In this document: piece by piece, positions 35,296-63,522 of the stretch
Layout of the letters: each line of letters starts with the position of its first letter
How positions within the stretch are numbered: the stretch's first letter is position 1
IMG/VR virus record: IMGVR_UViG_3300027797_000013
Span: 32,001-96,000 of that record
Strand: one strand, 5' to 3'
DNA length: 64,000 nt
Origin: a virus
Notes under the pieces: model-generated
Database searches by the model: none
Seen by the model: only the letters and a program-made list of their open reading frames with translations
Told to the model about the DNA's origin: nothing
Program-made: the position numbers and the translations under genes

Positions 35296-35318
35296 AACGA
35301 ACTACGATAAAATAAAAT

Positions 35319-35612
35319 ATGAGCTTAGATAAAGCAATTGAATTTGGAAAGGAGAAAAGAAAGCAATATAGAAAGAGCAAAGCTTTCGATCGCACTTGCC
35401 GCAATCACGGATCCTGTCCCTGGTGCGAAGGAAATAGAACATATCAAGCTCGCAAAGAGCATAAGAGAATTCAGAGTTCAGAGAAAGAAGAAGAGTATGA
35501 AGAGATTACAGAACCTAAAAAGTCTAGAAATTACGAGATTCCCCCATTATGGAAATTATTGAGACCTGAAGAGTCTGATGGCTCCGAGTATGGACCTTTT
35601 CAGACATACTAG
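35319..35612 (+). CDS. hypothetical protein with CRNHGSCPWC motif
   Basis: Follows a promoter motif; possible Zn-binding Cys/His cluster. Confidence 0.65.
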   Translation: MSLDKAIEFGKEKRKQYRKSKAFDRTCRNHGSCPWCEGNRTYQARKEHKRIQSSEKEEEYEEITEPKKSRNYEIPPLWKLLRPEESDGSEYGPFQTY

Positions 35613-35647
35613 AAACCTGGAAAATTTCCATACACAGACAGTCTCGA

Positions 35648-35736
35648 AATTACTAGAATGGAGTCAACCTGAAAATTATCAGACCCGCGTCATTATGGTA
35701 ATTACTAGAATGGAGTCAACCTGAAAATTATCAGAC
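35648..35736 (+). repeat. 37-bp direct repeat, 2 copies
   Basis: AATTACTAGAATGGAGTCAACCTGAAAATTATCAGAC at 35648 and 35700. Confidence 0.9.
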
Positions 35737-35791
35737 AGAAGGTAATAACGAACTCCGATATAATGATGGAGTAGAGAGTAACAAATAATTT

Positions 35792-35866
35792 AGCAGAGTG
35801 GAGCAGTGGTAGCTCGTTAGGCTCATAACCTAAAGGTCGTTGGTTCGAACCCAACCTCTGCAACCA
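35792..35866 (+). tRNA. tRNA-Met(CAT), initiator-like
   Basis: Cloverleaf, CAT anticodon, unpaired 1:72, GGAGCAG-type D stem, encoded CCA. Confidence 0.85.
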
Positions 35867-35920
35867 ATCTTTTAACGAACTCCGATATAATAAGTTGTCG
35901 GCAATAACCTTATCTTCTAT

Positions 35921-36172
35921 ATGACCAACTCTACTATCATCGCTGCTCTCAATGCTACCGAAGATCCTGCACTTGACAATATCATTATAGGTATGGCAGA
36001 TATTGAATGTGGGTTCGGTTCTTACGAAAAGGCGGTACGGTATGCTGCTTCTAGAAGCACGTATGAAGAGGTAATGAAGCTTCGAGATGCGTACGAGAAG
36101 CTAGCAGAGACGATGCAGCACGTAGCTACTGTTAAGCAGATACTATTCCGAGATGGTAATAACGAACTCTGA
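35921..36172 (+). CDS. small early hypothetical protein
   Basis: Lies between two promoter motifs. Confidence 0.65.
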   Translation: MTNSTIIAALNATEDPALDNIIIGMADIECGFGSYEKAVRYAASRSTYEEVMKLRDAYEKLAETMQHVATVKQILFRDGNNEL

Positions 36173-36207
36173 TATAATAATGGAGTAGAGAGTAACCAAA
36201 ACCTAAT

Positions 36208-36582
36208 ATGCGAACATTCGAAGAAATCAAAGCTAGCATGAAGAATCGTAAGCCTACGATCTTTAGTGAGATCGCTGAAAACGAACTCCGATATAATAAG
36301 GGAGTAAAGAGTAAAACTACTATGCGAACCTTCGAAGAAATTCTTGATAGTATCAAAGACATCGATCTAATGTTCGATGACGAATTGATCAATAAGTTCA
36401 TTAACGAAAGAGATGATCATTCGACGGCGAATCTATATAATCTACTCAAAGCGGGATCGTTGAATGAGGATGATATTTGTGACTTAGATGAAAATGATGT
36501 TCGGAATATCGTTGATTATGTTAACGTTCGATATGATATTGATTTGAAAGTAGTCGGTTGTAAAGTGATATGGAATAGTTAA
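36208..36582 (+). CDS. early hypothetical protein with internal second start at 36322
   Basis: MRTFEEI occurs twice, each copy after a promoter motif. Confidence 0.65.
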   Translation: MRTFEEIKASMKNRKPTIFSEIAENELRYNKGVKSKTTMRTFEEILDSIKDIDLMFDDELINKFINERDDHSTANLYNLLKAGSLNEDDICDLDENDVRNIVDYVNVRYDIDLKVVGCKVIWNS

Positions 36583-36630
36583 CGAACTCCGATATAATAA
36601 TGGAGTAGAGAGTATTAAAACTAATATATA

Positions 36631-36864
36631 ATGAAACAACTTAAGAAACAACTGGTTAGCTTTATTATGGAAAGTGAGAGCGCGCTCGTTCTATATAATG
36701 GAGTTGGTGGTGTAGTGGACGAACTGTCTCGAGAAGAGGTAGAGTCGATGGTCGAGAGTTGTAAGACAAAGTCAGAATTAAGTCGACTCATTATGGGTAA
36801 GTGGATGTATAGTGATGTGTATGGGAGCTTCGAAGAGCTGTTAGAGGATATTGAGACTGAATAA
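36631..36864 (+). CDS. small acidic early protein
   Basis: Follows a promoter motif. Confidence 0.65.
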   Translation: MKQLKKQLVSFIMESESALVLYNGVGGVVDELSREEVESMVESCKTKSELSRLIMGKWMYSDVYGSFEELLEDIETE

Positions 36865-36867
36865 GTT

Positions 36868-37038
36868 ATGACACTATCAATTGTACCGAAAGAGCGCCGC
36901 GTATGTCAGTACTGTGGCTCGGGGCATCTGATAGTCGCTACTACGCACGATCCGGTCCGGACCGATTGGTGTATGCTGTGTGGTCGCAAGCTAGATGAAG
37001 AGCTCAATGAGCTTCTGGAAGATATTGATATTGAATAA
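36868..37038 (+). CDS. small Zn-ribbon protein
   Basis: Hand translation: CQYCG…CMLCG, ending ELLEDIDIE. Confidence 0.55.
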   Translation: MTLSIVPKERRVCQYCGSGHLIVATTHDPVRTDWCMLCGRKLDEELNELLEDIDIE

Positions 37039-37061
37039 GCTCTCAGGTTAACCTGAGAGCT
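37038..37061. repeat. perfect 24-bp palindrome
   Basis: AGCTCTCAGGTTAACCTGAGAGCT. Confidence 0.9.
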
Positions 37062-37091
37062 GAGGCAAAAGGAACTCCGATATAATAAGGT

Positions 37092-37271
37092 ATGACGATT
37101 ACAGAACTAATTAACAAACTGCAGCAATTGAAAATGGAAAGCGGCGACATTAACGTACTTACTTATGATGAAAGTGAAGGTGCTTTTAATGTCGTTCAAA
37201 GTGCCTTTCTTTCATATCCTGATTCAGATGACGATGAAGGGATCGTGCCAACTGGAGTAATTCTTCAATAA
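37092..37271 (+). CDS. 59-aa early protein (paralogue of 41202)
   Basis: MTITELINKLQQL…DESEGAF; ATG 5 nt after TATAAT. Confidence 0.7.
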   Translation: MTITELINKLQQLKMESGDINVLTYDESEGAFNVVQSAFLSYPDSDDDEGIVPTGVILQ

Positions 37272-37332
37272 GGAACTTCAATATAATAATAGAGTAGAGA
37301 CTAACAAACAAACAATTAATCTAATCAATCAT

Positions 37333-37716
37333 ATGGCTTATCAATCTAAATACAAAGGCGTCCTCGTTCATCCTTCTGATAAAGACACACTGAACACTCT
37401 CCGTGCGCTAGCCCCTAGCCTTACTGAGGCAGATATGATGCAGTTCTTTATCAATAGTGTTGATAAAGAATCATTTACCGCTTTCCTCGTTGAAGAGGAG
37501 ACTCGTAACTTCCTCAAGAAGAACGATAAGAAAGAGGCTTCCGCTAAGCCTGCTAAGAAAGCAGCTAAGGCCGAGACGGTTGATAAGCCGGTCAAAGAGA
37601 AGAAGGTAAAGAAGGTCAAAGAGCCTGTGTTCGTAGCGACAGAAGAAGAGACTGATAAGGTTCGCGAACTGCACGATAAAGACGAGCCTGCTATTCGCGT
37701 AGTGGTAGGCTGCTAG
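37333..37716 (+). CDS. hypothetical protein with Lys/Ala-rich segment
   Basis: Follows a promoter motif. Confidence 0.65.
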   Translation: MAYQSKYKGVLVHPSDKDTLNTLRALAPSLTEADMMQFFINSVDKESFTAFLVEEETRNFLKKNDKKEASAKPAKKAAKAETVDKPVKEKKVKKVKEPVFVATEEETDKVRELHDKDEPAIRVVVGC

Positions 37717-37742
37717 CATAAGGAACTCCGATATAATAAGGT

Positions 37743-37907
37743 ATGAATACGACCCCAACTGAAGACGCAGTTAAGATCGCGCTGTTGCGCAAGACGCTAG
37801 AAGACTTGATCGGTGAGTGGGGCGGTCAAGTTGTCGATCCTAACTGCGACTGTGAGGACTGCAATCATCTGCGCCCTCTGTATAGAGCGCTTGAAGCGAC
37901 AAAGTAA
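37743..37907 (+). CDS. small early protein (CDCEDC)
   Basis: Hand translation; lies between promoter motifs. Confidence 0.6.
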   Translation: MNTTPTEDAVKIALLRKTLEDLIGEWGGQVVDPNCDCEDCNHLRPLYRALEATK

Positions 37908-37929
37908 AGGAACTCCGATATAATAAGGT

Positions 37930-38136
37930 ATGAAGACACAACAAGAGATCAAGGAGACTAGAGAGTACATCAAAGATACAGTGCAGTTCAAGATTAAGGT
38001 TGCTAAGGCTAATGAGTGGTTCGAACGCAACTTCAAATTGTCTGATGACGCTGACGAAGGTCGACACATCTGCGAGCGGTACTGCGAAGAGATCAAAGCC
38101 CTTCACGAGCTCTACCGTTACGAAAAAGGTCTATAA
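37930..38136 (+). CDS. small early protein
   Basis: EWFERNFK…CERY, shared with the next gene. Confidence 0.65.
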   Translation: MKTQQEIKETREYIKDTVQFKIKVAKANEWFERNFKLSDDADEGRHICERYCEEIKALHELYRYEKGL

Positions 38137-38149
38137 TTATATTACTACA

Positions 38150-38593
38150 ATGTCCTATATCGACAATGCAATCGATCTCTCTGCCGACGTCACGAGAGCT
38201 ACTGAGTGGTTCGAGAAGAACTTCAAGCAGTCAGAAAGCGCTGAAGAAGGTACGCGAGTATGTGAACGGTACCTCGCTGAGATGAAAGCTCTTCACGATC
38301 ACTATGTTACAAAGGTTGAAACATATAAAAACAATTGTGAATACTATACCGACAAGCCACGCATTACCGTTGACAATGTCAACTACGATTGGGACGGTTG
38401 GGCTGACGCCTATCTAGGTCCAACTACTCCATCTGGTATATATGGTGCACGAGAAGAGGAAGATGGTAAATGGCGACCAGCGGTATACCGTCCAACCGAA
38501 TACGATGCCGAATTATCATTTGAATCATTCGACACACCTCACTCTGCTATTAAAAGATCACTCGCTTACTTCGCAAAAGGAACTTCGATATAA
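38150..38593 (+). CDS. early protein, N-domain paralogous to 37930
   Basis: Start MSYIDN; EWFEKNFK…CERY. Confidence 0.65.
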   Translation: MSYIDNAIDLSADVTRATEWFEKNFKQSESAEEGTRVCERYLAEMKALHDHYVTKVETYKNNCEYYTDKPRITVDNVNYDWDGWADAYLGPTTPSGIYGAREEEDGKWRPAVYRPTEYDAELSFESFDTPHSAIKRSLAYFAKGTSI

Positions 38594-38638
38594 TAATGTT
38601 GTCAGAGATTGAAAGATACGTTTGACATAAAAACAAAC

Positions 38639-38715
38639 GGCTCGTTAGCTTAATGGCAAAAGCGTCTTAGATGGTGACATCTAAGGAGATGAAGGTTCGA
38701 TTCCTTCCCGACCCT
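38639..38715 (+). ncRNA. tRNA-like RNA with sealed anticodon arm
   Basis: D arm and T arm (GAAGG-TTCGATT-CCTTC) present; anticodon arm is CTTAGATG-GTGA-CATCTAAG; acceptor stem has 2 mismatches; no CCA. Confidence 0.55.
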
Positions 38716-38803
38716 GCTTTCAACGTAGGATGAACATCCGAACAACGAGGCGTCAGAATACGCCTACAAGACACAACTTTAGGAACTCCGGTATAATAAT
38801 AGT

Positions 38804-39148
38804 ATGACCAACGACGAATTCATCAAAGACACCATCGAGTACTACTGCACAGACTCTGACCGCATCGCATATCCAGGTCCAATGTACAAGTGTGGTGGTC
38901 GCTTCTGCGCCGTTGGTCGGTGGATTAAGCCTGAGAAGTACTGTAACGCAATGGAGTGCAGTCCTAACGTAGAGGAGCTGCTCCAAATATATCCTGACTG
39001 CTTGATGGATGAAGTGAGTAGTGTTGATGTAGAGGTACTCTCTGTGATGCAGCAGATGCACGATGTAGTGTTGTCCAGTATTTATTCAACTGAGCAGAAT
39101 CGACAAAAGGCAAAGGTGTTCCTCGAACGCCGCGGCATCACAATCTAA
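38804..39148 (+). CDS. early hypothetical protein (CAVG motif)
   Basis: Follows a promoter motif. Confidence 0.65.
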   Translation: MTNDEFIKDTIEYYCTDSDRIAYPGPMYKCGGRFCAVGRWIKPEKYCNAMECSPNVEELLQIYPDCLMDEVSSVDVEVLSVMQQMHDVVLSSIYSTEQNRQKAKVFLERRGITI

Positions 39149-39170
39149 AGGAACTCCGATATAATAAGGT

Positions 39171-39536
39171 ATGAACATTAACGATCTAACAGATGCAGAG
39201 CTGATTGAAGTCAAAGAGGCTTGGGAAGGAGTAAACAAAGGACAGTACCATGCATGGACCCATACACGCGCTGATGGCTGGGATGACTTCGATGTAGCGA
39301 GAGCTTATCCTGAGTGGTGCTTCGCTGATAATCCCGAGCGGATGCTCAATACATACCCACACTGGGTAGCAATCAATCAACCTGAATTCGCGTTCGAACG
39401 TGAGCCAAAGACAGTAGCTGTAGACAATAACCGTTGGGTAAAAGAGAACAGGCCCGAGTACTACGCAGAGTATAGGAAGGCGATGCGCTTAGCAGGTTAT
39501 GTACCACATAACGGAATGGGCATCGAAGAGCTGTAA
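39171..39536 (+). CDS. early hypothetical protein
   Basis: Follows a promoter motif; PEW/PHW-type short repeats. Confidence 0.65.
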   Translation: MNINDLTDAELIEVKEAWEGVNKGQYHAWTHTRADGWDDFDVARAYPEWCFADNPERMLNTYPHWVAINQPEFAFEREPKTVAVDNNRWVKENRPEYYAEYRKAMRLAGYVPHNGMGIEEL

Positions 39537-39579
39537 CCAAGGCGGGTCGTTTGTTTAAGGAACTCCGATATAATAAGGT

Positions 39580-39768
39580 ATGACCGAAACTGAATACAAC
39601 GAAATTGCTGCTGAAATCTTTGAATCTGCTATGTGGACTATTAAGTTTACATTAGATGCTAAGAAGTCATCAGATGAAGAAAAGCTAAGTCAAATTAAAA
39701 CAATCGTCAGCGGAGCCTTCAAACGCATCGCAGAAGAAGAACTCAATATGCTGTGCGACGAAGAATAA
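39580..39768 (+). CDS. small early protein
   Basis: Follows a promoter motif. Confidence 0.65.
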   Translation: MTETEYNEIAAEIFESAMWTIKFTLDAKKSSDEEKLSQIKTIVSGAFKRIAEEELNMLCDEE

Positions 39769-39791
39769 ACGAACTCCGATATAATAATAAT

Positions 39792-40004
39792 ATGCACAAT
39801 GTATCTGTTGGTGACATCTTTATGGATTCAAATGAAGTCTTTCGTGTGATAGAAGTTCTAGAAAACGAGAAGTTTCCTGAAGATCCACTCATCGAAGTTG
39901 AAGTGTGTATGAGTGGTCCCGGGCGCGAGGGCTTGGGCGACTGGAGCTTCACTCTCGAACAAGCAGAAAAGTACAACCTGCAGCACTACAAAGCTGCCAA
40001 GTAA
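39792..40004 (+). CDS. small early protein (paralogue of 51744)
   Basis: MHNVSVGD…RVIEV. Confidence 0.65.
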   Translation: MHNVSVGDIFMDSNEVFRVIEVLENEKFPEDPLIEVEVCMSGPGREGLGDWSFTLEQAEKYNLQHYKAAK

Positions 40005-40027
40005 ACGAACTCCAATATAATAATAAT

Positions 40028-40279
40028 ATGACACAATCAATCAACTCCTTCGACCTTACTCCAAACGAGCACATCGCTCTTGACAATATTACTGCAAAGC
40101 TGCTCGATGATGTCAATGTCGATATCAAAGAAGCCTTCGAAGTAGTCCAGGCCATTACTCAATCAGAAGGACTGACTGTAGAAGAGGTAATCAAGTTCCT
40201 CACAGAGAGCCTATTCATGGACCTCGAAGTAAGCCCTGATGGTATGACGTTTAAGGCTAACGATGTGCATGATGTATAG
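40028..40279 (+). CDS. small acidic early protein
   Basis: Start MTQSIN after a promoter motif. Confidence 0.65.
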   Translation: MTQSINSFDLTPNEHIALDNITAKLLDDVNVDIKEAFEVVQAITQSEGLTVEEVIKFLTESLFMDLEVSPDGMTFKANDVHDV

Positions 40280-40425
40280 TTCTATTCACGTAAAGGTTCT
40301 TCCTAAGAAAATAGATTATAGCTCTTCGACAATAGAGTGTGAAGCACGCCGTCTTCTATACATTGACGATAGAACTATAGAGTACTGTCAAAAGACCACG
40401 ACCACCCACCCACTACCTCCGGTAT

Positions 40426-40668
40426 ATGACTACTGCAGAGAAGATAGCGATCTTGGATAAGGAGTATGCCGATGCCAAGATCGTTGTCAATAAGACCATA
40501 GAGACCTTCTGTGGTCTGAATTCAGCTGAATCGTTGGCAGTGCGCAGGCTGTTCCAGACAGAGAGAGCACTAGATGGTCTGCTAAAGGCTCTCAGAGAGC
40601 GTCACATTAGTAATCCGGACATAGAATGGATCATTGGTGTAGCAGAAGACATCCGCTACCTAGAGTAA
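40426..40668 (+). CDS. small hypothetical protein
   Basis: ORF whose stop overlaps the next promoter motif. Confidence 0.55.
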   Translation: MTTAEKIAILDKEYADAKIVVNKTIETFCGLNSAESLAVRRLFQTERALDGLLKALRERHISNPDIEWIIGVAEDIRYLE

Positions 40669-40689
40669 GGAACTCCGATACAATAAGGT

Positions 40690-40974
40690 ATGACCGACGA
40701 ACTCAAAACAAACCAAACGTGGGCCGAAATTTCAGCTCTGCGTACAGAAGCCAATATCAAGTCCGCTGCTGCGCACAGAGCTTGGCTTCGGTCTACTGTA
40801 GACCTCAACACTCTCGGACAAAACGAGCAGGTGGTGAAGGAAGTAAATGATAAGCGAGCTGCTGCCTATGCTGAGTATAAGCGCTGTCACGATGAGGCCT
40901 TTAGAATCTCGCAGATAGCCAACTCCTTGTATAGAGATATGGCAGGTTCAGATGATCATCTGTTTAACAAATAG
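40690..40974 (+). CDS. small early protein
   Basis: Follows a promoter motif. Confidence 0.65.
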   Translation: MTDELKTNQTWAEISALRTEANIKSAAAHRAWLRSTVDLNTLGQNEQVVKEVNDKRAAAYAEYKRCHDEAFRISQIANSLYRDMAGSDDHLFNK

Positions 40975-41004
40975 ACCAGTAAGGAACTCCGATATAATAA
41001 TAGT

Positions 41005-41175
41005 ATGACCGACATTACTAAATTCACTGCTGCAGAGCTGGCTCGTATCGAAGCATACGACGCTGACCTTCTTATGCTCAAAGGTTGGGCATCTAATCTC
41101 GAAGAGGCTACACAGATGGCCCGAGCCACTCTCTGTAAACGCTTTGGTGTTAAACAAATGCCTAACCAAGACTAG
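41005..41175 (+). CDS. small early protein
   Basis: Hand translation MTDITKF…; follows a promoter motif. Confidence 0.6.
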   Translation: MTDITKFTAAELARIEAYDADLLMLKGWASNLEEATQMARATLCKRFGVKQMPNQD

Positions 41176-41201
41176 TAAAGGAACTCCGATATAATAATAG
41201 T

Positions 41202-41381
41202 ATGACGATTACAGAACTCATCAACAAACTACAGCAATTGCAAACGCAAGACGGTAATGTAAATGTAAACATTGTCGATGAAAGCGAAGGTGCTTTTAAG
41301 TATTACAAAGTGTTGTACTACAACAATCCGAACCAGGATACAAATATGAGCGCTGGTCGCCCTGGTGAAGTACTTCAGTAA
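41202..41381 (+). CDS. 59-aa early protein (paralogue of 37092)
   Basis: MTITELINKLQQL…DESEGAF. Confidence 0.7.
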   Translation: MTITELINKLQQLQTQDGNVNVNIVDESEGAFKYYKVLYYNNPNQDTNMSAGRPGEVLQ

Positions 41382-41396
41382 AGGTACTCCGATACA

Positions 41397-41700
41397 AGCT
41401 CTCTATATAGCTAATATAGAGAGCAGGCGCTAGCGATAGCTACGCCTCTAGACTATCAGCTCTCTAGACCGTCAGCGCTCCAGATTGTGTATAGAGAGCG
41501 AGAGAAAAAAAAGGTGTGAGCCGCCATGGCCCAATTTTTTTTTTGCAAATTTCCGAAGACCTCCCATATAGGAATTTTTGCAAATTTCCGTATAGCCCTC
41601 TTCTCCCAATCCCCCCACGCCTATAAGATATTCGGAGTCGATACGGAAAATTTTTTTTTCGGAAATTCTCAGAGTTTTCCTAATAGCCGATTTGTAGATA
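41397..41700. other. non-coding signal-like region with homopolymer tracts and repeats
   Basis: Long A and T tracts, a C6 run, TTTTTGCAAATTTCCG twice, repeated CTCTAGAC. Confidence 0.6.
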
Positions 41701-41747
41701 ATACCTTATAAGGTGACTCTAAATTACGGATGAGAGGCGGATTGAAA

Positions 41748-41755
41748 TATAAATA
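41748..41755 (+). promoter_or_regulatory. T4-type late promoter TATAAATA
   Basis: Exact T4 late consensus 5 nt before the ATG; TAA(A/G)TA-N5-ATG recurs before many genes. Confidence 0.65.
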
Positions 41756-41760
41756 ACTAT

Positions 41761-42249
41761 ATGAAGAAAACAGATATCGAGCAGCTTGGTGCACTCTATG
41801 AACAAATAAGCTTCGGAGAGCCTGGTGGTGGTGACAAGTATGGTCCTACTATGGGCCGAGGCGGTTACGGTGTCAGAGTTGCTCCTAAGGAAAAGCGTGA
41901 TCCAGATGAGTATAATGATGGATACGATGACGATGAAGATGGGCCTGATGACTATTTCGACTATGGTTCCTGTATGTTTAAGAAGAACACTTTTCAAAGA
42001 AATCCTTCTTCAATTAAAGCTCATACTACTTTAATTGATGAGGTAGATAATAATAAATCTATTTCTTTCGACAGATTTTGGGAGCTCTTTAGTGTAATGT
42101 ATAGCCTTACAGAGAAGGATACACCTCATTCTAACTTCTTTAAAGTGGCTATTCGTTGCGCTGTTTATAAAGTAAACCAGGACTTCCCTGACATGTCGCT
42201 AGAAGCATCTTTACCTGGAGAAGGCTCAGTATACAAAAAGGAAAGTTAA
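41761..42249 (+). CDS. hypothetical late protein
   Basis: Late promoter; N-terminal LYEQ. Confidence 0.65.
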   Translation: MKKTDIEQLGALYEQISFGEPGGGDKYGPTMGRGGYGVRVAPKEKRDPDEYNDGYDDDEDGPDDYFDYGSCMFKKNTFQRNPSSIKAHTTLIDEVDNNKSISFDRFWELFSVMYSLTEKDTPHSNFFKVAIRCAVYKVNQDFPDMSLEASLPGEGSVYKKES

Positions 42250-42269
42250 TTACTAAACTAAATAGTAAT

Positions 42270-42893
42270 ATGACTCTAAATCACAATGTTGGTAACATTA
42301 AATGTTTAGTAAGAGTCTCTCACTTGACCCATAATCCAGAAGATCATGACAAGTACCATAATGCTTACATATTTGGTATTCAATCTATATCTATGAAGAT
42401 CTTAACATTCCATATCATGACTGATTATGGAATGATGAGAAGTAGGGTTCCTATTAGTGAGATATTTTTGTCTGAGCCTACTAATGATATTCCTTTCCAC
42501 TTTAAACAGCTGTGGGATTGCTTTAGCGAGAATGTATCGGTAATTACTTATGAGTATCTAAAGGAAAAGAGATGCGAAGTATTACTGAAGGACGGATCAA
42601 AGATTTGGGCGAGCTATCTCTTTACCGTAGATTGGTACAACAATGCTTATTCAGATGAGCCTTCTGATTATAAGTGTGGACACGTCTTAGTAGCAGATGA
42701 TGGTTATCTATTATGCCAGCCTAATAATAGAATATACTGGAGAGACTCTAACTGGGTCACTAAGCCTTTTCCCTTTAAGACAACAAAGACTATAAAGGTT
42801 GATAATAAATTACCTTCGGTAGAGGTCGTTTCAGACAAATGGGTTACCGAAGATACTGATTCTTATTATTACGATATATCTAAAAAGGCATAG
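42270..42893 (+). CDS. conserved phage hypothetical protein
   Basis: QLWDCFS, YLFTVDW, QPNNRI motifs. Confidence 0.65.
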   Translation: MTLNHNVGNIKCLVRVSHLTHNPEDHDKYHNAYIFGIQSISMKILTFHIMTDYGMMRSRVPISEIFLSEPTNDIPFHFKQLWDCFSENVSVITYEYLKEKRCEVLLKDGSKIWASYLFTVDWYNNAYSDEPSDYKCGHVLVADDGYLLCQPNNRIYWRDSNWVTKPFPFKTTKTIKVDNKLPSVEVVSDKWVTEDTDSYYYDISKKA

Positions 42894-42914
42894 GCTAGAT
42901 TAGGATCTTAGCTA

Positions 42915-54912: not shown

Positions 54913-55938
54913 TTAGTTATTGTAAATATCGAGTAACTTAAATTGAAGATGAGGTCCTTTAGAGAAGATTTTTGAAGCAGCCATATTAAGCGCATTCGAT
55001 TTGTACAAACCAATTTCGTCCTTTTTATGAGTAGCGAGATAGGTTGCGCGATTAAACATATCGTATAGGTTTTCGTTAGTATACGTATATCGTGCTTTCG
55101 AAGCGTTCATATCTTTAATAGGATATCCTGCTAGCTCTAGATCGTTAACAGTACTAGTATATTCAGGAATATAGAGATCACGTTCATCACTACTTAGAAC
55201 TTTTGCAATATCACTCAGCTCTGCAAATGATGCGCGTGAGTTCTTAAGCTTATTGACTTTAATGACAATCATATCAGAGCTATCCTGTTTCGAGAATTTG
55301 TTATACTGACGCTCAACATCTTCGTCAGATTTGAAGACTCGATTAAAAAGTACTTCTTGAACCATTAGTCCGTTCGCGCAAGCGAGACGAAGATAATAGC
55401 TTTTGAAAGTATTACTAGTCAGACCTAGATTAGTAGAAGTTCCAGCTTTATAGCTATCGTTAGGACCGCAAGAAATTTCTTTCTCTTTAGTAGAGTTAAT
55501 AACTAGCTTTCCAGTTTCAGGAAGATAGAAGATCTCAGTTAGAGTATCATTACTATCGTTGATAGCATTCATAACGCTATCGATTCGATTATCGAAATTT
55601 AGTTGAGTAGGTTCTACAAAAGAAGTTCCAGTAAAGATCTCAACTTCAGAGTTATCGTTGACAACACAATTGAAGAGACGATTCTTATCGACTTTATTGA
55701 TTGCTGATCGCACTTCAGCCCAGTTGAGATTAGTCACGTCGTCAGTCTCGTTAAAGATCTCTTTTGTTAGAGATTCTTTAATTCCGAGAGTATTCATAGT
55801 TTTACGAGTACTATTAAACTTATAACGATTATTAATATAAAGATCATTTCCTTGGTTAGTAATATCTCGCACTGTAAAAGGGAGAATGGTTTTAGTTTTG
55901 ATTTGATTTTTGACTTCTTCGATAGTAGCAGCGTTCAT
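54913..55938 (-). CDS. DUF932-like protein
   Basis: YLRLACANGL motif. Confidence 0.5.
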   Translation of the reverse strand: MNAATIEEVKNQIKTKTILPFTVRDITNQGNDLYINNRYKFNSTRKTMNTLGIKESLTKEIFNETDDVTNLNWAEVRSAINKVDKNRLFNCVVNDNSEVEIFTGTSFVEPTQLNFDNRIDSVMNAINDSNDTLTEIFYLPETGKLVINSTKEKEISCGPNDSYKAGTSTNLGLTSNTFKSYYLRLACANGLMVQEVLFNRVFKSDEDVERQYNKFSKQDSSDMIVIKVNKLKNSRASFAELSDIAKVLSSDERDLYIPEYTSTVNDLELAGYPIKDMNASKARYTYTNENLYDMFNRATYLATHKKDEIGLYKSNALNMAASKIFSKGPHLQFKLLDIYNN

Positions 55939-55950
55939 ATTATTATTATA

Positions 55951-56595
55951 TTAGAGTTCGTTAACGGTATTGTAAAACTTTTTGGCTACGATTTTTGGGA
56001 GACCGAATTGTTTAAACATTGGCAGGATCTCATTTCGAACCCAGTTACGTCTATACGTGTTGTCCTTATTGGTCTCATCCTCTACAATATATGAGGTGAG
56101 TTTGTTGTGCACGGTATAATTTACAAAATCTTCCTTTTTAGTTCTCATAAAAGGTCTAATGAGCATTTTTGGCTTAATTAGTTTACAGTTGTCTAAAGGA
56201 GTAAGAGTAGGTACAGGTACATACTCAGGACATCCTCTTAGCATATTCATTACGTAGCCTTCAACCGCATCTCCGTTATGATGACAACATACTACATCAC
56301 TGTATAGAGATTTAAAAAAATCCATTCTTTCCTCTCTTAAGGCATCTTCGCTCTTGGTCCAAAAAGCACCACGCGTACCAACTACGCATTCAGTAGAAAA
56401 ATGATGACAAAACACTTCTACCATCTCTTGCATAGTATGATTTTGTTGTCTCAAATTATGATTAAAGTGAGCTACTTTGACTCGATCTCCGTAAAGTCTA
56501 ATTAAGAGATGAGCTGCTGCGATACTGTCCACTCCACCAGATACAGCGACGTAGAACTCGCCGCTAGGAATCAATGAACGATCTAATTTAATCAT
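55951..56595 (-). CDS. tilS: tRNA(Ile) lysidine synthetase, minimal
   Basis: AVSGGVDS PP-loop, HFNHNLR, HHNGD..E, LIRP, DETN…RNWVR. Confidence 0.85.
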   Translation of the reverse strand: MIKLDRSLIPSGEFYVAVSGGVDSIAAAHLLIRLYGDRVKVAHFNHNLRQQNHTMQEMVEVFCHHFSTECVVGTRGAFWTKSEDALREERMDFFKSLYSDVVCCHHNGDAVEGYVMNMLRGCPEYVPVPTLTPLDNCKLIKPKMLIRPFMRTKKEDFVNYTVHNKLTSYIVEDETNKDNTYRRNWVRNEILPMFKQFGLPKIVAKKFYNTVNEL

Positions 56596-56617
56596 ACCTT
56601 ATTATATACAAGTTCAT

Positions 56618-57427: not shown

Positions 57428-57503
57428 TGGTAGGCCGTATTGGATTCGAACCAATGACCAAGGGATTATGAGTCCCCTGCTCTTACCGCTGAGCTAACAG
57501 CCT
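57428..57503 (-). tRNA. tRNA-Ile2(CAT), copy 1
   Basis: GGGGA-CTCATAA-TCCCT; body resembles bacterial Ile2 more than Met; CCA; near tilS. Confidence 0.85.
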
Positions 57504-57950: not shown

Positions 57951-58316
57951 TTATAAGGTAGTTCCATTTGACTGTAAGCAATCCATAGAGAACATTTCTA
58001 CATTTTCAGTCATGTCAAATTGCTGATTCATGATACCTAGTAGAGCATTTTTGCTATGCGAAGTATAGATAGCTACCTCTTTTTCGTCAATACTGCCAAA
58101 GTAATACTCAGTATAAGTCTCTTCCTCGAAACCAGTATAAGACTCTGCCTCGAAACCTTCGCAATATTCTATAATATCTACAGGAGACTTATCCATAAAA
58201 GTGATAAACTGAGTCTCATCTATCTCTTCTAGCTTATAACCAACTCGTGATGCATTATACGTACCAAATATATTTTCTGGATTACAAGTCGCGTAAGTCA
58301 AAGTAAGTTTGTGCAT
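57951..58316 (-). CDS. acidic early hypothetical protein
   Basis: Follows a promoter motif. Confidence 0.6.
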   Translation of the reverse strand: MHKLTLTYATCNPENIFGTYNASRVGYKLEEIDETQFITFMDKSPVDIIEYCEGFEAESYTGFEEETYTEYYFGSIDEKEVAIYTSHSKNALLGIMNQQFDMTENVEMFSMDCLQSNGTTL

Positions 58317-58340
58317 ATTATTATTATATTGTAGTTCGTT

Positions 58341-58807: not shown

Positions 58808-59272
58808 TTATAGAATAAAGAAATAGTAAATTACGATTAGGACCCATCCAATCAATCCTAATAAACATCCAACAGCAACGCCTTTTGCTGGGTCACTATT
58901 ATCAGCTCTATACAATTCTTCAAGAGTCACCGCATTCGGAACGACTACTGGCTCTACTAAAACAGGTTCCGCTGATAGAGTTTCAGTAACGGTTTGTTCG
59001 CGTTCTACTTTTACTTTTAGTACATGGTCAAGATTACAGTAATGAATTACTGTAACAATCTTATTAGTATCTCCTTGCAACTTTACTACACTATCTGAGA
59101 CCGAGATAGTATAATGTGGATACAAGCTAGATAGTTGTTGCTCTAGATAATTCTCTTGCTCTTTTGAGAGATTAATATCTAGTTTAATTCGGCCGCCGCC
59201 AGCTCGACTATCGTGACGCGCTTTGACGTAAAATCCTAAAATATTCCTAATTTGTTTAATTGAAGGTCTCAT
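58808..59272 (-). CDS. hypothetical protein with C-terminal TM helix
   Basis: Follows a promoter motif; hydrophobic C-terminus. Confidence 0.6.
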   Translation of the reverse strand: MRPSIKQIRNILGFYVKARHDSRAGGGRIKLDINLSKEQENYLEQQLSSLYPHYTISVSDSVVKLQGDTNKIVTVIHYCNLDHVLKVKVEREQTVTETLSAEPVLVEPVVVPNAVTLEELYRADNSDPAKGVAVGCLLGLIGWVLIVIYYFFIL

Positions 59273-59347
59273 TGTGCTTATTATATATAAGTTCGTTAAC
59301 TAAAATATTAAAGAAAAACCCATAAATTAAATTATGGGTTAAGAAAT

Positions 59348-59455: not shown

Positions 59456-59665
59456 TCAAGCTACTGCTGCGGCTTTCGCTGCTTTACGCTCGTTCTTTTC
59501 GTCTGTAATTTGCTTGCGGCAAATCTTAACATTAGCGATTACTTCTTGCAACGCTTTACGTGCTCGAGTACTAGCTGAACCATTACCTGATTGGAATTTA
59601 GTGTATTCACTCTGGGCTGAGGTTAGATGATGGGCTGCTTGCATTAGTGCTGTGTCTGTTGTCAT
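59456..59665 (-). CDS. histone H1/Hc1-like small basic protein
   Basis: GNGSASTRARKALQE…RKQI. Confidence 0.65.
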   Translation of the reverse strand: MTTDTALMQAAHHLTSAQSEYTKFQSGNGSASTRARKALQEVIANVKICRKQITDEKNERKAAKAAAVA

Positions 59666-59749: not shown

Positions 59750-59995
59750 TTAATAAACTGCAGCGCCGAATCCATCACCATATCCACCACCATTACCAGA
59801 CCCGGAACCAGAACCAGCTCCAGACCTAGCTCCTTCTCCAAACCCGTCTCCATATCCGCATCCACTACCATTACCCTTACCGAATCCCGACCCCGTAGCA
59901 TTTCCAAAACCGTATCCAAGCCCAGTAGTATCTTCTAAACCAGATCCCCATTCTAGATCTGGTGAATATGTACTGTGTATATAACTTAGTTTCAT
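59750..59995 (-). CDS. Gly-X repeat peptide 8
   Basis: MKLSYIHSTYSPDL leader plus (GX)n. Confidence 0.75.
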   Translation of the reverse strand: MKLSYIHSTYSPDLEWGSGLEDTTGLGYGFGNATGSGFGKGNGSGCGYGDGFGEGARSGAGSGSGSGNGGGYGDGFGAAVY

Positions 59996-59999
59996 AAAA

Positions 60000-60272
60000 T
60001 TAATCTTCATCATAATAAGAATGATCGTACCCGTAATCAATACTATAACCAGATCCTTCACCTAACCCCTCGCCTTCTCCGTCACCTTCTCCTCCACCAT
60101 CTCCATGTCCAAACCCCATCCCTTCACCTTCCTTACAACCTGACCCCTCTCCAGACGCATAGCAGGTGCCGCAGCAATCACCATAACCAAATGTAGTACC
60201 ATGACCAGACCCACATTGATAAATGTAATCTCTTTTTTCAAACATATGGTTACCTATTAGTAAATTATTCAT
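60000..60272 (-). CDS. Gly-X repeat peptide 7
   Basis: Leader plus (GX)n. Confidence 0.75.
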   Translation of the reverse strand: MNNLLIGNHMFEKRDYIYQCGSGHGTTFGYGDCCGTCYASGEGSGCKEGEGMGFGHGDGGGEGDGEGEGLGEGSGYSIDYGYDHSYYDED

Positions 60273-60290
60273 ACTTTCTTTATATTTAAT

Positions 60291-60578
60291 TTATAAATGA
60301 TCTTGAAAATAATAAACATATTCATATTCAGTCATATCTTCTGCTCCATCTCCTGTACCATTACCATATCCATATCCCGTCCCAAATCCTGCTCCATCTC
60401 CTGTTTCAAATCCAGATCCAGAACCTTCACCATCTCCTGATCCATCTCCCGAGTTGTACCCACTACCATAGCCATCGCTATGACCGAAACCAAGGCCTGA
60501 GCCATCCTCTTTACCGTGACCTCCTCCAAATTCATCAACCTGTATAAATGTGTGATGTGTTTCTACTAAAGTTTTCAT
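60291..60578 (-). CDS. Gly-X repeat peptide 6
   Basis: Leader plus (GX)n. Confidence 0.75.
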   Translation of the reverse strand: MKTLVETHHTFIQVDEFGGGHGKEDGSGLGFGHSDGYGSGYNSGDGSGDGEGSGSGFETGDGAGFGTGYGYGNGTGDGAEDMTEYEYVYYFQDHL

Positions 60579-60587
60579 AAATTAAAT

Positions 60588-60869
60588 TTATCCTTTTCCT
60601 GACCCCTCTCCATCACCTTGACCAGTTACTGCTCCATTACCCCAGCCACACGCCCACCATGATACCTGGCCTCCTCCTACTGGCTCTTCACCATTTCCAT
60701 CACCATTTCCGTCACCATCTCCATCACCCTCGCCGTAACCAAAACCTTCTCCATTACCATATCCATGACCATTGGTATAGCCTTGAGCCGCATTGAACTT
60801 TTGCATAAGTTCGCCTGCACCCATATCTTCAAAATTATTAATTAGAAAAGCTTCAATAAGAGAATTCAT
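60588..60869 (-). CDS. Gly-X repeat peptide 5
   Basis: Leader plus (GX)n. Confidence 0.75.
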   Translation of the reverse strand: MNSLIEAFLINNFEDMGAGELMQKFNAAQGYTNGHGYGNGEGFGYGEGDGDGDGNGDGNGEEPVGGGQVSWWACGWGNGAVTGQGDGEGSGKG

Positions 60870-60898
60870 AAAATTTACTTTTTTTTATTCTTAAACCC

Positions 60899-61150
60899 CT
60901 ATCCACTACCATCACCATATCCCTCTCCGTCACCAAATCCAAGTATATAATTTCCTTTTTTACATTCGTCAGTACATCTGAATCTATATCCTCCTCTATA
61001 TCCAATCCCTTCACCATCACCAATCCCTTTACCATCTCCAAGTCCAGCACCGTTTCCTTTTCCAGTTTCAGCTCCGTCTCCGAATCCAGTCCAGGAAGAA
61101 ATTAATTCAATATATTCTTCTGTGTGAGAATGATGTGCTAATTTTATCAT
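60899..61150 (-). CDS. Gly-X repeat peptide 4
   Basis: MIKLAHHSH leader. Confidence 0.75.
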   Translation of the reverse strand: MIKLAHHSHTEEYIELISSWTGFGDGAETGKGNGAGLGDGKGIGDGEGIGYRGGYRFRCTDECKKGNYILGFGDGEGYGDGSG

Positions 61151-61416
61151 ATATTTAATTTATTGTCTGTGACTATTCCTGCCCCATTTCCATCACCAAA
61201 CCCACTTCCTCTTCCATTACCATATCCATAACCATCTCCCCAACCGTAGCCCTCACCATCACCATCTCCTTCACCAATCCCATCCCCAAATTGGGATGAT
61301 CTTAGCCAGTCTCTTCCATATCCAGATCCATCTCCAAATCCAGCTCCACATCCAAAACCAGCAGAAATAGCTTTAATGAATAAATTAGAATGTGAATGAT
61401 GTGCTAATTTTAGCAT
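61147..61416 (-). CDS. Gly-X repeat peptide 3
   Basis: MLKLAHHSH leader. Confidence 0.75.
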   Translation of the reverse strand: MLKLAHHSHSNLFIKAISAGFGCGAGFGDGSGYGRDWLRSSQFGDGIGEGDGDGEGYGWGDGYGYGNGRGSGFGDGNGAGIVTDNKLNI

Positions 61417-61429
61417 AACTTTAAATTAT

Positions 61430-61669
61430 TCAGTTAATTGTATACCCTGTTCCGTCACCTGTACCATCCCCTTTCCCTTTTCCTGATCTTTCATTATACC
61501 CACATGAAAATCCAGACCCATCACCAGACCCAGCTCCATCAATAAACCCACAGCCAAACCCATAACCAAGACCAGAGCCATCACCTAAACCACAGCCAGA
61601 TCCAGTTCCATCACCAGATCTACAGACCAAATCAGCAAAATCACCATGGTGTCTATAAAGTAAATTCAT
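61430..61669 (-). CDS. Gly-X repeat peptide 2
   Basis: MNLLYRHH leader. Confidence 0.75.
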   Translation of the reverse strand: MNLLYRHHGDFADLVCRSGDGTGSGCGLGDGSGLGYGFGCGFIDGAGSGDGSGFSCGYNERSGKGKGDGTGDGTGYTIN

Positions 61670-61680
61670 AAAATTATCTA

Positions 61681-61875
61681 TTAAGACTCATCTCCAGCTC
61701 CATCGCCGAATCCATCACCGAATCCAGATCCTTCTCCATAGGCATCATTGTATCCACTCTCATGCCCTTGACCTGATCCCGTCCCATGACCGTATTCAAT
61801 GCCAGATGAATCTCCATTCCCAGATCCACAGATCAAATCAGGAGAATAAAGATTATGTATAGAAAGTAGATTCAT
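61681..61875 (-). CDS. Gly-X repeat peptide 1
   Basis: MNLLSIHNLYSPDL leader. Confidence 0.75.
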   Translation of the reverse strand: MNLLSIHNLYSPDLICGSGNGDSSGIEYGHGTGSGQGHESGYNDAYGEGSGFGDGFGDGAGDES

Positions 61876-61890
61876 AAAATAAAAAAGAAA

Positions 61891-62007
61891 GAGCAGGGTA
61901 GGATTTGAACCTACACGGGCTAGCCTCATACCACCAAGGATTAATGATAGAATCGAACTACCTGCGCTAGCCCTGTTTCTGACCGTATACCTAATCGGAC
62001 TCTGCTC
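61891..62007 (-). ncRNA. 117-nt tRNA-like RNA with two T-loops
   Basis: GAGCAG/CTGCTC closing stem, CCG/CGG D-like arm, GGGCTAGC/GCTAGCCC stem, loops TTCGATT and TTCAAAT. Confidence 0.6.
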
Positions 62008-62018
62008 GTCTATTAAAC

Positions 62019-62387
62019 TTACTCGATAAACTTAATATAAGTAGCTTCCGCTTGCGAGGTTGTCGGAATATACTCAATAGCATTGGTTAGATAGACCTCA
62101 CCAGTTGCATTCAAGCGACCACCTTTGATACCGTCATTAGCTACAGCAGAGAGACTTAGACCGCCGCCTTCCCATTTCCATAGTCGCAAAGCGTTATCCA
62201 GCTTCACTTCCATAGAGTTATTAGGGTTAATATAGGTGACATCTCCGATGTGAACACCTGCTGAATAGGTTCGAATAATACAGCGACGTCCAAGCATTGG
62301 ATGGCTAGTTGCAGCTGGAGCGGAATTAAGGTTCGAGAACATTGAAGCAATTTGTTTAGCTTCACGAATTGTCATATCTTCAATCAT
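62019..62387 (-). CDS. putative Sm/LSm-like fold protein (DUF6948-like from memory)
   Basis: LGRRCIIRTYSAGVHIG…VKLDNALRLWKW…LS..A..G…IEYIP. Confidence 0.55.
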   Translation of the reverse strand: MIEDMTIREAKQIASMFSNLNSAPAATSHPMLGRRCIIRTYSAGVHIGDVTYINPNNSMEVKLDNALRLWKWEGGGLSLSAVANDGIKGGRLNATGEVYLTNAIEYIPTTSQAEATYIKFIE

Positions 62388-62417
62388 ATTATTTGGTTTG
62401 TTTATTGGTTTGGAAAT

Positions 62418-62493
62418 TGGTAGGCCGTGTTGGATTCGAACCAACGACCAAGGGATTATGAGTCCCCTGCTCTTACCGCTGAGCTAACGGCCT
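62418..62493 (-). tRNA. tRNA-Ile2(CAT), copy 2
   Basis: Differs from 57428-57503 at 3 positions; CCA. Confidence 0.85.
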
Positions 62494-62505
62494 ATTTTGA
62501 AAATT

Positions 62506-62582
62506 TGGTGCACCTAGTTGGATTCGAACCAACGACCGACGGATTCATTTGTCCGCTGCTCTATCCGCCGAGCTACAGGTAC
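62506..62582 (-). tRNA. atypical tRNA with 8-nt anticodon loop (Arg-like body)
   Basis: Intact acceptor, D and T arms and CCA; GCGGA-CAAATGAA-TCCGT. Confidence 0.7.
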
Positions 62583-62625
62583 TTTTTTGTCTATACATTT
62601 TTATATAAGAGTTCGTTAAAGTGAG

Positions 62626-62698
62626 TAGGTACTGAGGGATTCGAACCCTCACTGGAAAGATTTTAAGTCTTGTGTCTCTGCCGTTGGACTAAGCACCC
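62626..62698 (-). tRNA. tRNA-Leu(TAA), short variable arm
   Basis: CAAGA-CTTAAAA-TCTTT; no encoded CCA. Confidence 0.8.
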
Positions 62699-62713
62699 GT
62701 GTTTGAAAATTGT

Positions 62714-62788
62714 TGGTGACCCTACCAAGAATCGAACTTGGACTTTCTGATTAGAAGTCAGATGCTCTATCCGTTGAGCTATAGGGTC
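62714..62788 (-). tRNA. tRNA-Arg(TCT)
   Basis: TCTGA-CTTCTAA-TCAGA; CCA. Confidence 0.95.
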
Positions 62789-63071
62789 AATTTGTTGTTG
62801 TACAGTTATTATACGGTAGTTCGTTTTTAAATCTACTATATTATAAAGAATTTATATACTGCTCTAATTCAATATAGTCAAGTATATCAAGAGCTTCTTC
62901 TTTATTAGCAGGGTTAAAATCTGAATCTTTTAACCCGTGATTGTTTCTAACTGAGTTGCAGCTTACAAATGAAAATAGAACTACAAGTGCAAAGGTCACT
63001 AGAGAGATAAAGTTTATTTCTGATATAGAAGTTTTCATTAATAATTTTCTATGTCATACTTTATTTAATCT

Positions 63072-63296
63072 CTACTCTGGTGAAAGCTCTCTTTCTGGAA
63101 CCACCTTTGGTCTACGAGCTTTCTTTGCTTTGTTTAGGAAGATTGTAAATTCCTTCTTAGTAAGAACGCCATCACCATTAGCATCTGCTACTAAAAAAGC
63201 CTTTTCAATAAGAGTATCAGGTAGGGGGTCAGGTTCTACGCCTTGACCATATAAAGATTGAGTTGCGAGGAGTAATAGGATATATAACTTTTTCAT
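63072..63296 (-). CDS. secreted EF-hand protein
   Basis: Signal peptide; DANGDGVLTKKE loop. Confidence 0.7.
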   Translation of the reverse strand: MKKLYILLLLATQSLYGQGVEPDPLPDTLIEKAFLVADANGDGVLTKKEFTIFLNKAKKARRPKVVPERELSPE

Positions 63297-63522
63297 AAAA
63301 TTTATTCGTTGTCAAGTGGAGTCGTCCAGGACTTGATCATTGCATACACATGCACTTCATAGTATGCTACACTTGGGTCATTACGTAACTGCTCTTCTAG
63401 AGCTTGTACCTCTTTAAAGTCCTCGCATAGGAAGAACTCTTGCTTTTGGTCATTCTTAAAACAAAGTATAGTATAGGAACTCATAGATACTTAAGACAAA
63501 TTTATTATAAAGCAGTTCGTTA

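Follow-up and report, generated by a model that had tools for sequence, protein, structure and literature searches.

Late transcription in phage T4 starts at the promoter TATAAATA, which is read there by gp55 with gp33 and the gp45 clamp, and PMC1524935 places this consensus at -13 to -6 from the transcription start. T4 itself does not set its promoters directly against its start codons, an arrangement that is known experimentally mainly from Thermus phages. One of these, P23-45, reportedly makes leaderless middle and late transcripts. For another, phiYS40, leaderless middle and late transcripts, which the host must translate, are described in PMC3594737. Zhong et al. (2025; PMC12340547) associate leaderless mRNA in Deinococcus-Thermus with a -10-like hexamer set about 6-7 bp before the open reading frame (ORF), and Arbiol et al. 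(2010; PMC2839356) describe the PeSL (promoter-early stem-loop) cassettes of T4-type phages, which pair a strong early promoter with a stem-loop and are shuffled. Differential RNA sequencing of phiKZ found no leaderless phage transcript (PMC8244752). Here we consider a 64,000-nucleotide stretch of viral DNA (the window), bases 32001-96000 of the 121,642-bp IMG/VR virus record IMGVR_UViG_3300027797_000013, in which two classes of promoter-like motif, an early-type repeat around TATAAT and a late-type box TAA(A/G)TA, lie a few nucleotides before start codons. We think it probable, from motif geometry and its conservation, that both classes are built against start codons, and that the promoter-proximal gene of each unit would be expressed from a leaderless (5'-AUG) mRNA.

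The source contig is AT-rich (GC 38%) and carries, by Pfam and PHROGs, T4-type genes for the major capsid protein gp23, the portal gp20, gp15, a gp21-type protease and the terminase, as well as sheath, tube and baseplate proteins and the clamp-loader subunits gp44/gp62; it is a fragment of a distant T4-like myovirus, uncultured and from freshwater. Its capsid protein is 31-34% identical to cyanophage gp23 across the 25 best-ranked records of the phage collection, which holds no record matching it at 60% identity or more, and a near-identity DNA search of the same collection returned a 57-nt tRNA match only. Relatives of the capsid protein were found in at least 599 IMG/VR stretches (tblastn, E <= 1e-3), of which the best 80, 63-88% identical, served as the conservation set. 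A related record, G001, is 229,717 bp long and complete according to CheckV, and a second relative of 111.6 kb is rated 52% complete, so the contig is probably about half a genome. DNA polymerase, gp45 and gp55 were not found in this fragment with Pfam, PHROGs or queries from cyanophage P-HM2 and the clade; gp55 homologues occur in three of the four clade relatives searched, including the complete 229.7-kb record.

To relate motifs to genes, 174 ORFs were called as the first ATG after a stop, blind to the motifs and with ATG starts only. The gap between the end of TATAAT and the ATG is 5, 6 or 7 nt in 10, 10 and 3 of these, and TAA(A/G)TA ends at the same distances before the first ATG in 29, 8 and 2 (39 genes). 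Every other offset between 0 and 44 nt holds three ORFs at most for either motif. A histogram of -10-to-ATG distances had been proposed as a check by the first-pass annotation of this DNA, a model's reading of the letters, and the peak it gives is sharp. The fused starts are all ATG and all the first ATG of their frame, with the exception of 46933, which is internal; between 35296 and 63484 there are 21 early-type and eight late-type promoter-ATG sites. The same pipeline applied to a 50-kb late region of T4 returned box offsets of 9-46 nt and none at 5-7, and with the same ORF caller cyanophage P-HM2 gave one site at 5 nt and the remainder at 20-50. The first 50 kb of the Pelagibacter phage HTVC008M holds 58 ORFs, and in 8 of them the gap from TAAATA to the ATG is 5 nt.

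The late-class junction TAAATA-N5-ATG has 29 occurrences in the contig, where 50 Markov shuffles gave 3.6 on average and never more than 10. The genes concerned include those for the portal, prohead protease, tail sheath, a T4-baseplate-domain protein, a tail-tube homologue, a head-tail adaptor and a head-closure Hc2-like protein, and two lysozyme-domain genes. Across the best 80 of the at least 599 IMG/VR loci (923 ORFs), TAAATA stands 5, 6 or 7 nt before the ATG in 160, 51 and 37 ORFs, compared with four at offset 4 and 14 at offset 8, and one or more sites at 5-6 nt are present in 60 of the 80 loci. In three late genes the box, its spacing and the ATG are kept in orthologues while flanks and spacer letters vary; for gene g21 all three are kept in 5/5 orthologues, and where the protein alignment of late-gene orthologues is offset, the ATG has shifted together with the box. 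In G001 the late box likewise peaks close to the ATG, at 4-6 nt (13/23/15). Judged by its core and by the genes it precedes, this box is the late promoter of T4, newly placed with respect to the gene. A (T/A)nTAAATA box of the T4 type that ends 5 nt before the ATG would, given the -13 to -6 placement in T4, put +1 on the A of the start codon.

The early class is a repeated element with the consensus (T)AA(C/G)GAACTCCGA-TATAAT-AA. Its 15-mer GAACTCCGATATAAT, at up to three mismatches, has 39 copies in the window against 2.87 expected, a number reached in 0 of 100 shuffles, and 47 in the 121,642-bp contig. The copies form two arrays, at 35.3-41.4 kb on the plus strand and 45.5-63.5 kb on the minus strand, about 18 of them falling within 35.7-41.4 kb and some 17 others on the minus strand; small ORFs lie between them, and every array copy is oriented with its neighbouring genes. 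Exact GAACT-N4-TATAAT occurs at 36 sites in the contig, and in 24 of these an ATG follows at N5 (10), N6 (11) or N7 (3). At the GAACT-type sites an N5 spacer reads AAGGT without exception and an N6 spacer, but for one TATAAT, reads AATAGT or AATAAT, so the observation that an ATG follows TATAAT by 5-6 nt in many early units was recovered together with all three spacers originally quoted for it. A T precedes the ATG everywhere except at two N7 sites. The exact 17-mer is present in multiple copies in about 30 viral contigs; of its 52 distinct contexts, 30 have an ATG 5-7 nt further on. Among 185,579 bacterial and archaeal species genomes, the promoter word with 21 specified bases has no match, and the 17-mer has 43 single, taxonomically scattered matches where about 70 would be expected by chance from the size of the collection; the word is therefore no genomic repeat of a host, and it points to none.

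Several features argue that this element is a promoter. The early-type motif lies within 60 nt upstream of four of nine tRNA genes, as would be expected of a promoter but not of a translation signal. In G001, TATAAT-N6-ATG occurs at 22 genes, and 22 of the 30 TATAAT-N5-7-ATG sites carry TTG at the -35 position with a spacing of 15-17 nt (16 nt in 17 of them), so that these sites are to all appearances an ordinary two-hexamer promoter pressed against the ATG; since the G001 counterparts carry this TTG, TATAAT can be taken as a true -10 element in our phage as well. A sigma70 -10 element usually lies 6-7 nt from the start site. With TATAAT acting as such a -10, the A of the ATG, 6 or 7 nt on, would be a normal start for RNA polymerase, with a pyrimidine (T) at -1 and a purine at +1. 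The class would then be a repeated promoter without a -35, of the form (T)AA(C/G)GAACTCCGA-TATAAT-AA.., which a group of environmental viral contigs has in common with this phage. In this phage the place of the -35 is occupied by the conserved GAACTCCGA (stretch AAcGAACTcCgA), and a -35-less GAACTCCGA-TATAAT promoter that is word-for-word common to many environmental contigs makes this element a candidate transcription-factor site. The word 'early' rests on gene content and promoter type, from which we infer the timing of the class. A hairpin, ACTCC/GGAGT, around the -10 of the long-leader copies was considered and dropped, as neither the short class nor the relatives preserve it.

Consistent with messages that lack a leader, Shine-Dalgarno-like motifs (GGAG, GAGG or AGGA at -18 to -4) are absent: they occur in 6 of the 174 genes and in 7 of the 174 for a control window further upstream. 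The corresponding figures are 31/56 against 2 in T4, 22/58 against 5 in HTVC008M and 48/319 against 21 in G001. The genes thus combine the two sequence marks of a leaderless mRNA, no Shine-Dalgarno motif and an AUG start, the second of these among ORFs for which only ATG was considered. The constant AAGGT of the N5 spacer was weighed as a Shine-Dalgarno sequence and set aside because of its spacing, as it would stand 1 nt from the ATG, and the N6 class lacks it. In the proposed scheme the ribosome and initiator tRNA would bind the 5' AUG directly and so start translation, which fits both a genome without Shine-Dalgarno motifs and an initiator-type tRNA of the phage driven by the first promoter of the array.

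This tRNA gene, at 35792-35866 (+), begins 27 nt after the first full promoter copy (35750-35764). It has a CAU anticodon, and in the ARAGORN fold it shows the A1.A72 mismatch expected of an initiator, with an A11:U24 pair in the D-stem (G10 A11 G12 C13 / G22 C23 U24 C25); its anticodon stem has two G-C pairs where an initiator would have three, 29:41 being A-U. Its best Escherichia coli match is the tRNA-Met gene between argG and rimP-nusA-infB (81.6% over 74 nt, at a median of 4 places per genome). We take this E. coli locus upstream of rimP-nusA-infB to be the initiator gene metY. By these likenesses (A1.A72, A11:U24, nearest to E. coli tRNA-Met) the tRNA is of the initiator type, and its place among the first units of the array is as described in the first-pass annotation, which had called it initiator-like. 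G001 also carries a tRNA-CAT, with two G-C pairs next to the anticodon loop as read from the sequence, and it, too, presumably resembles an initiator tRNA. That a phage initiator tRNA biases translation toward 5'-AUG messages, and so favours phage over host, is speculation.

A number of observations weigh against this account or narrow it. The promoter-ATG layout at 5-7 nt is found in 62 of 174 genes (36%), for which reason the phrase 'largely leaderless', used of the transcriptome in the first-pass annotation, overstates the case. The major capsid gene has no late box at its ATG, and its leader, at least about 30 nt long, is conserved: its upstream region, L001:15313-15400 (contig coordinates), is an 88-nt intergenic stretch free of late boxes, with a hairpin AGGTACC..GGTACCT and a purine-rich AAAGGAAA, and the ATGAAGGTCGAA..AAGGAAA part is conserved in relatives. 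Seven copies of the plus-strand array have a gap of 27-45 nt to the ATG or tRNA and are not of the leaderless type. TTG stands at the -35 position in just 2 of 32 TATAAT-N5-7-ATG sites of this phage, which explains why a generic two-hexamer sigma70 scan showed no enrichment (59 matches against 49 +/- 7); measured against a sigma70-type promoter, then, the -10 TATAAT is there (36 sites) and a TTGACA at 16-18 bp is not. With an N5 early spacer, the A of the start codon comes 6th after TATAAT, where the 7th base would be usual, and a start on the G of the ATG would destroy the codon; the constant AAGGT of this short spacer may compensate for the position. As gp55 and gp45 were not found in the contig, that gp55 with gp33 and the gp45 clamp would read this phage's late box is inferred from the relatives. 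Terminator-like sites are not enriched between 35000 and 54999 (15 against 12.7 +/- 3.6 in shuffles), and only a few early units have a hairpin before the promoter; read-through is therefore likely, most genes would also lie inside read-through transcripts, and many fused ATGs would be internal in such RNAs, where another way of initiation would be needed. 'Leaderless' consequently applies only to the transcript from each gene's own promoter. Because operon-internal genes also lack Shine-Dalgarno motifs, some other route of initiation independent of them must exist.

RNA libraries, kept as contigs, cover part of the locus: one freshwater metatranscriptome contains 85% of the sampled words of window 35296-45295, and two lake RNA runs contain 5-6% of the sampled words of the queried stretch. 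RNA contig ends at 37906, 41189 and 41398 were considered as transcript ends and were rejected as assembly breaks because they fall on the repeated motif. Word depth is 20-36 at 35.7-41.7 kb and 0.65-2.2 at 33.0-35.0 kb, a pattern that would suit RNA better than DNA, but contig depth cannot rank genes and is not used as evidence.

The alternative that stays closest to our reading accepts the motifs as promoters and moves the start by 1-3 nt from the A, onto the G where the early spacer is N5, or to a point 1-2 nt upstream where it is N6-7, so that leaders would be very short or the codon lost, with some proteins beginning at a later codon. The spread of the spacing speaks for it, since neither class is single-valued (early 5/6/7 nt, 10/10/3; late 29/8/2; the G001 late box at 4-6 nt, 13/23/15), as does the 6th-base position of the A in the N5 early class. 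We nevertheless hold it to be unlikely. The near-invariant T before the ATG gives the pyrimidine-purine context of a start on the A; the spacer sequence changes with its length, AAGGT with N5 and AATAGT or AATAAT with N6, as if to hold one start in place; N-terminal residues of orthologues are conserved from the ATG on; and no downstream start has a Shine-Dalgarno motif. The first-pass annotation's placement of +1 on or next to the AUG stands as far as the geometry goes, which is far beyond chance and agrees with the T4 late box and the sigma70 gap, while the starts themselves remain predicted positions.

A further alternative, and a very unlikely one in our estimate, is that the repeats act at the RNA level, as intercistronic processing sites or, in a host that makes no use of Shine-Dalgarno pairing, as A/U-rich landing pads for ribosomes, or as cassettes similar to PeSLs that recombination keeps alike, with their closeness to the ATG a by-product. 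Such a view would draw on the internal initiation without Shine-Dalgarno motifs that even operon-internal genes call for, and on the polycistronic RNAs that the terminator counts make likely. It would also draw on the paralogous cassettes at 37092-37271/41202-41381 and 39792-40004/51914(-) and on the tandem start 36208/36323, which share their first codons. Two RNA-library contig variants each leave out exactly one cassette, 37088->37267 and 41189->41398, although the shorter arm of these joints measures 28-30 letters at 90% likeness and the joints are flagged weak; they hint at possible gene gain and loss by recombination at the repeats, and shuffling of PeSLs is documented in T4-type phages (PMC2839356). 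Against it, the late box is identical to the core of T4's late promoter and stands before virion genes, the -10 of G001 is paired with a -35 TTG at 15-17 nt, and the motif also precedes tRNA genes. Recombination, moreover, cannot explain the late sites, because their flanks differ while box and spacing persist, and a role for it in the early arrays is compatible with leaderless expression and does not exclude it. That AT-rich upstream DNA (GC 38%, with 313 TATAAT and 194 TAAATA hexamers in the contig) merely mimics the motifs while the ORF caller picks nearby ATGs is scarcely credible, given the shuffles (29 observed against 3.6, at most 10, and 33 against 7.3, at most 13), a histogram that is flat outside 5-7 nt, ORFs called blind to the motifs, and the want of a peak in AT-rich T4 and P-HM2.

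If leaderless expression from both classes is correct, an abundant uncultured aquatic T4-like lineage would express at least a third of its genes leaderless, via host-type and gp55-type promoters, and the promoter itself could be used for start-codon calling in such phages. No description of leaderless early or late genes in T4-like phages was found in the literature searched, and in the pelagiphage and cyanophage papers PMC9004378 and PMC12801897 the word 'leaderless' appears solely in the title of a cited gene finder. A bolder extension, which we regard as doubtful, is that a large and abundant aquatic T4-like clade runs most of its expression without 5' untranslated regions, as a translational take-over of the host by mRNA architecture. 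Early genes would then be mobile cassettes of promoter plus start codon, read through GAACTCCGA in place of a -35 by a phage or host factor; gp55-type late promoters would be fused to the late genes; and the phage initiator tRNA would push ribosomes to 5'-AUG, so that phage mRNAs would be distinguished from the leadered mRNAs of the host. In this extension the host may be a verrucomicrobial bacterium of the Planctomycetes-Verrucomicrobia-Chlamydiae (PVC) group, which is not known to have a cultured T4-like phage, although no search was made for one. Two genes of the window bear on the host: a GDP-mannose-dehydratase-like (gmd-like) gene at 51937-52950 (-) is 74-78% identical to genes of Verrucomicrobiota metagenome-assembled genomes, its best 25 matches being mostly Verrucomicrobiota, and a 69-aa protein encoded at 59456-59665 (-) matches the Hc1 histone-like family (PF07432, E 8e-10). 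Together they are a weak hint at a PVC-group (Verrucomicrobiota) host.

The individual early-type sites are as follows. On the plus strand the array opens with the full-consensus GAACTCCGATATAAT copy and the tRNA-CAT gene already described (35750-35866), followed at 35877-36633 by four copies that have 30-33-nt leaders and are not of the leaderless type, running from 35877 to the ATG at 35921, from 36164 to 36208, from 36283 to about 36323 and from 36584 to 36631. Fused sites with an N5 spacer lie at 37072-37094 (GAACTCCGA-TATAAT-AAGGT-ATG, 59-aa ORF), 37723-37745 (54 aa), 37910-37932 (68 aa), 39151-39173 (121 aa), 39560-39582 (62 aa) and 40670-40692 (a TACAAT variant, 94 aa). Those with an N6 spacer are found at 38783-38806 (AATAGT, 114 aa), 39771-39794 (AATAAT, 70 aa), 40007-40030 (83 aa), 40984-41007 (56 aa) and 41181-41204 (59 aa, a paralog of the 37092 gene). 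Interspersed with these are a copy with a 45-nt leader to the ATG at 37333 (37273-37335) and a copy at 38580-38594 followed by a tRNA-like gene at 38639-38715, which was missed by ARAGORN and scores 38.1 bits with the Rfam tRNA model (38580-38715 in all). Minus-strand fused sites have an N5 spacer at 45464-45486 (54 aa), 49581-49603 (71 aa) and 56593-56615 (the 214-aa PP-loop, TilS-like gene), and an N6 spacer at 46299-46322 (73-aa reading frame), 51198-51221 (62 aa), 51912-51935 (56-aa reading frame, a paralog of the 39792 gene), 55936-55959 (341 aa) and 58314-58337 (121 aa); the ATG stands at N7 at 51717-51741 (126-aa deaminase-like ORF) and 59270-59294 (154 aa). Two degenerate minus-strand copies, 62600-62614 and 62808-62822 (62600-62822), are upstream of tRNA genes, so the motif also serves untranslated genes.

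Late-type junctions with an N5 spacer occur in the same region on the plus strand at 41750-41763 (TAAATA, 162-aa ORF) and 42259-42272 (TAAATA, 207 aa), and on the minus strand at 43908-43921 (TAAGTA, 331-aa lysozyme-domain protein), 44438-44451 (TAAATA, 167 aa), 45291-45304 (TAAGTA, 269 aa), 46073-46086 (TAAGTA, 114 aa), 46931-46944 (TAAATA, before an in-frame ATG 16 codons inside the ORF opening at 46981) and 49023-49036 (TAAGTA, 64 aa). Within 20073-34928 there are further N5 ATGs at 20084(+), 20900(-), 21572(-), 21625(+), 24595(+), 30187(-), 31183(-), 32563(-), 33267(-), 34206(-) and 34917(-), and N7 ATGs at 23355(-) and 31854(-). The 17 late coordinates listed in the first-pass annotation all carry TAA(A/G)TA-N5-ATG, in 16 cases at the first ATG of the ORF and in one, 46933, at an internal in-frame ATG; the range it gave for them, 35296-63484, holds for seven, and the other ten (20084-34917) lie outside it. 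Four of the late genes, those with ATGs at 32563, 33267, 34206 and 34917, are paralogs (window 31865-34917, minus strand) with near-identical promoter-start junctions, TATATTAAATA(A/C)TATA-ATGCC, and three of the four have weak DUF4893 matches. A TAAATA box at 47431-47445 (-) stops 7 nt short of the tRNA-Tyr 5' end, and transcription of the late type would begin there 1-2 nt ahead of the mature tRNA.

The other two CAT tRNAs, 57428-57503 (-) and 62418-62493 (-), are paired at 1:72 and best match the E. coli tRNA-Ile gene downstream of rpoD-mug (87.7%), presumably ileX. Near them, and beside one of the two, is a PP-loop gene (PF01171, TilS-type) at 55951-56595 (-), and the phage may supply both a tRNA-Ile2 and its modifying enzyme. 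A further member of the tRNA cluster, 62506-62582 (-), has an 8-base anticodon loop ('aatg', called Ile|His). At 46338-46374 (-), just upstream of the early-type promoter at 46308-46322, the Rfam abiF RNA motif scores 51 bits against a gathering score of 37.

Around the arrays, a 300-nt purine-rich plus-strand stretch with no convincing gene separates the late and early blocks (35000-35300), and two direct repeats of about 36 nt (ATTACTAGAATGGAGTCAACCTGAAAATTATCAGAC) lie just before the first promoter (35640-35740). The plus-strand array ends in inverted and direct repeats (41400-41720), among which an A-run, hairpin and T-run at 41497-41550 could serve as a bidirectional terminator. A 56-aa Cys-rich early protein encoded at 36868-37038 (+) has weak matches to the PknG rubredoxin domain and to RbpA, which binds RNA polymerase (E 0.004-0.007, below cut-offs); it is a candidate polymerase binder only. 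Eight small paralogous genes of 79-95 aa stand in a row at 59750-61929 (-), several with a Gly-rich GDG-type stretch just before the next ATG; the row is mostly without either promoter motif and looks like one operon. Elsewhere in the contig are a QueF-like gene of the 7-deazaguanine pathway at L002:11816-12802 (contig 29816-30802, minus strand) and, at contig 1-7000, a block of methyltransferase, glycosyltransferase and nucleotidyl-transferase genes between the clamp-loader genes gp44 and gp62.

Considering the described systems again, the late class shares with the T4 late promoter its core TAAATA with T/A further upstream, its position before virion genes and, in the clade relatives, the presence of gp55 homologues, but the T4 box lies 9-46 nt from the ATG in a genome with Shine-Dalgarno-like motifs (31/56), whereas here it lies 5 nt away, such motifs are absent and gp55 was not found in the fragment. 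The cultured T4-like SAR11 phage HTVC008M shows the same late spacing in its 8 of 58 ORFs, yet it has no TATAAT at 5-7 nt in its first 50 kb and retains Shine-Dalgarno-like motifs (22/58). With phiYS40 the likeness is that most of a temporal mRNA class would be without leaders, although that phage is unrelated, its host belongs to a phylum rich in leaderless genes and its 5' ends were mapped, while here the 5' ends are predicted from promoter geometry. In Deinococcus-Thermus the leaderless layout is a trait of cellular genomes, unlike the phage programme proposed here, with two promoter classes of which one is phage-specific. PeSL cassettes resemble the early arrays in having strong early promoters, almost the same in sequence, that recur between small genes of unassigned function in a plastic region; they differ in pairing the promoter with a stem-loop terminator, whereas here hairpins are not enriched, there is no -35 and the promoter abuts the ATG. 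On this comparison the layout would be a variant that combines the late promoter of T4 with leaderless transcripts such as other phages make and with early cassettes of the PeSL type.

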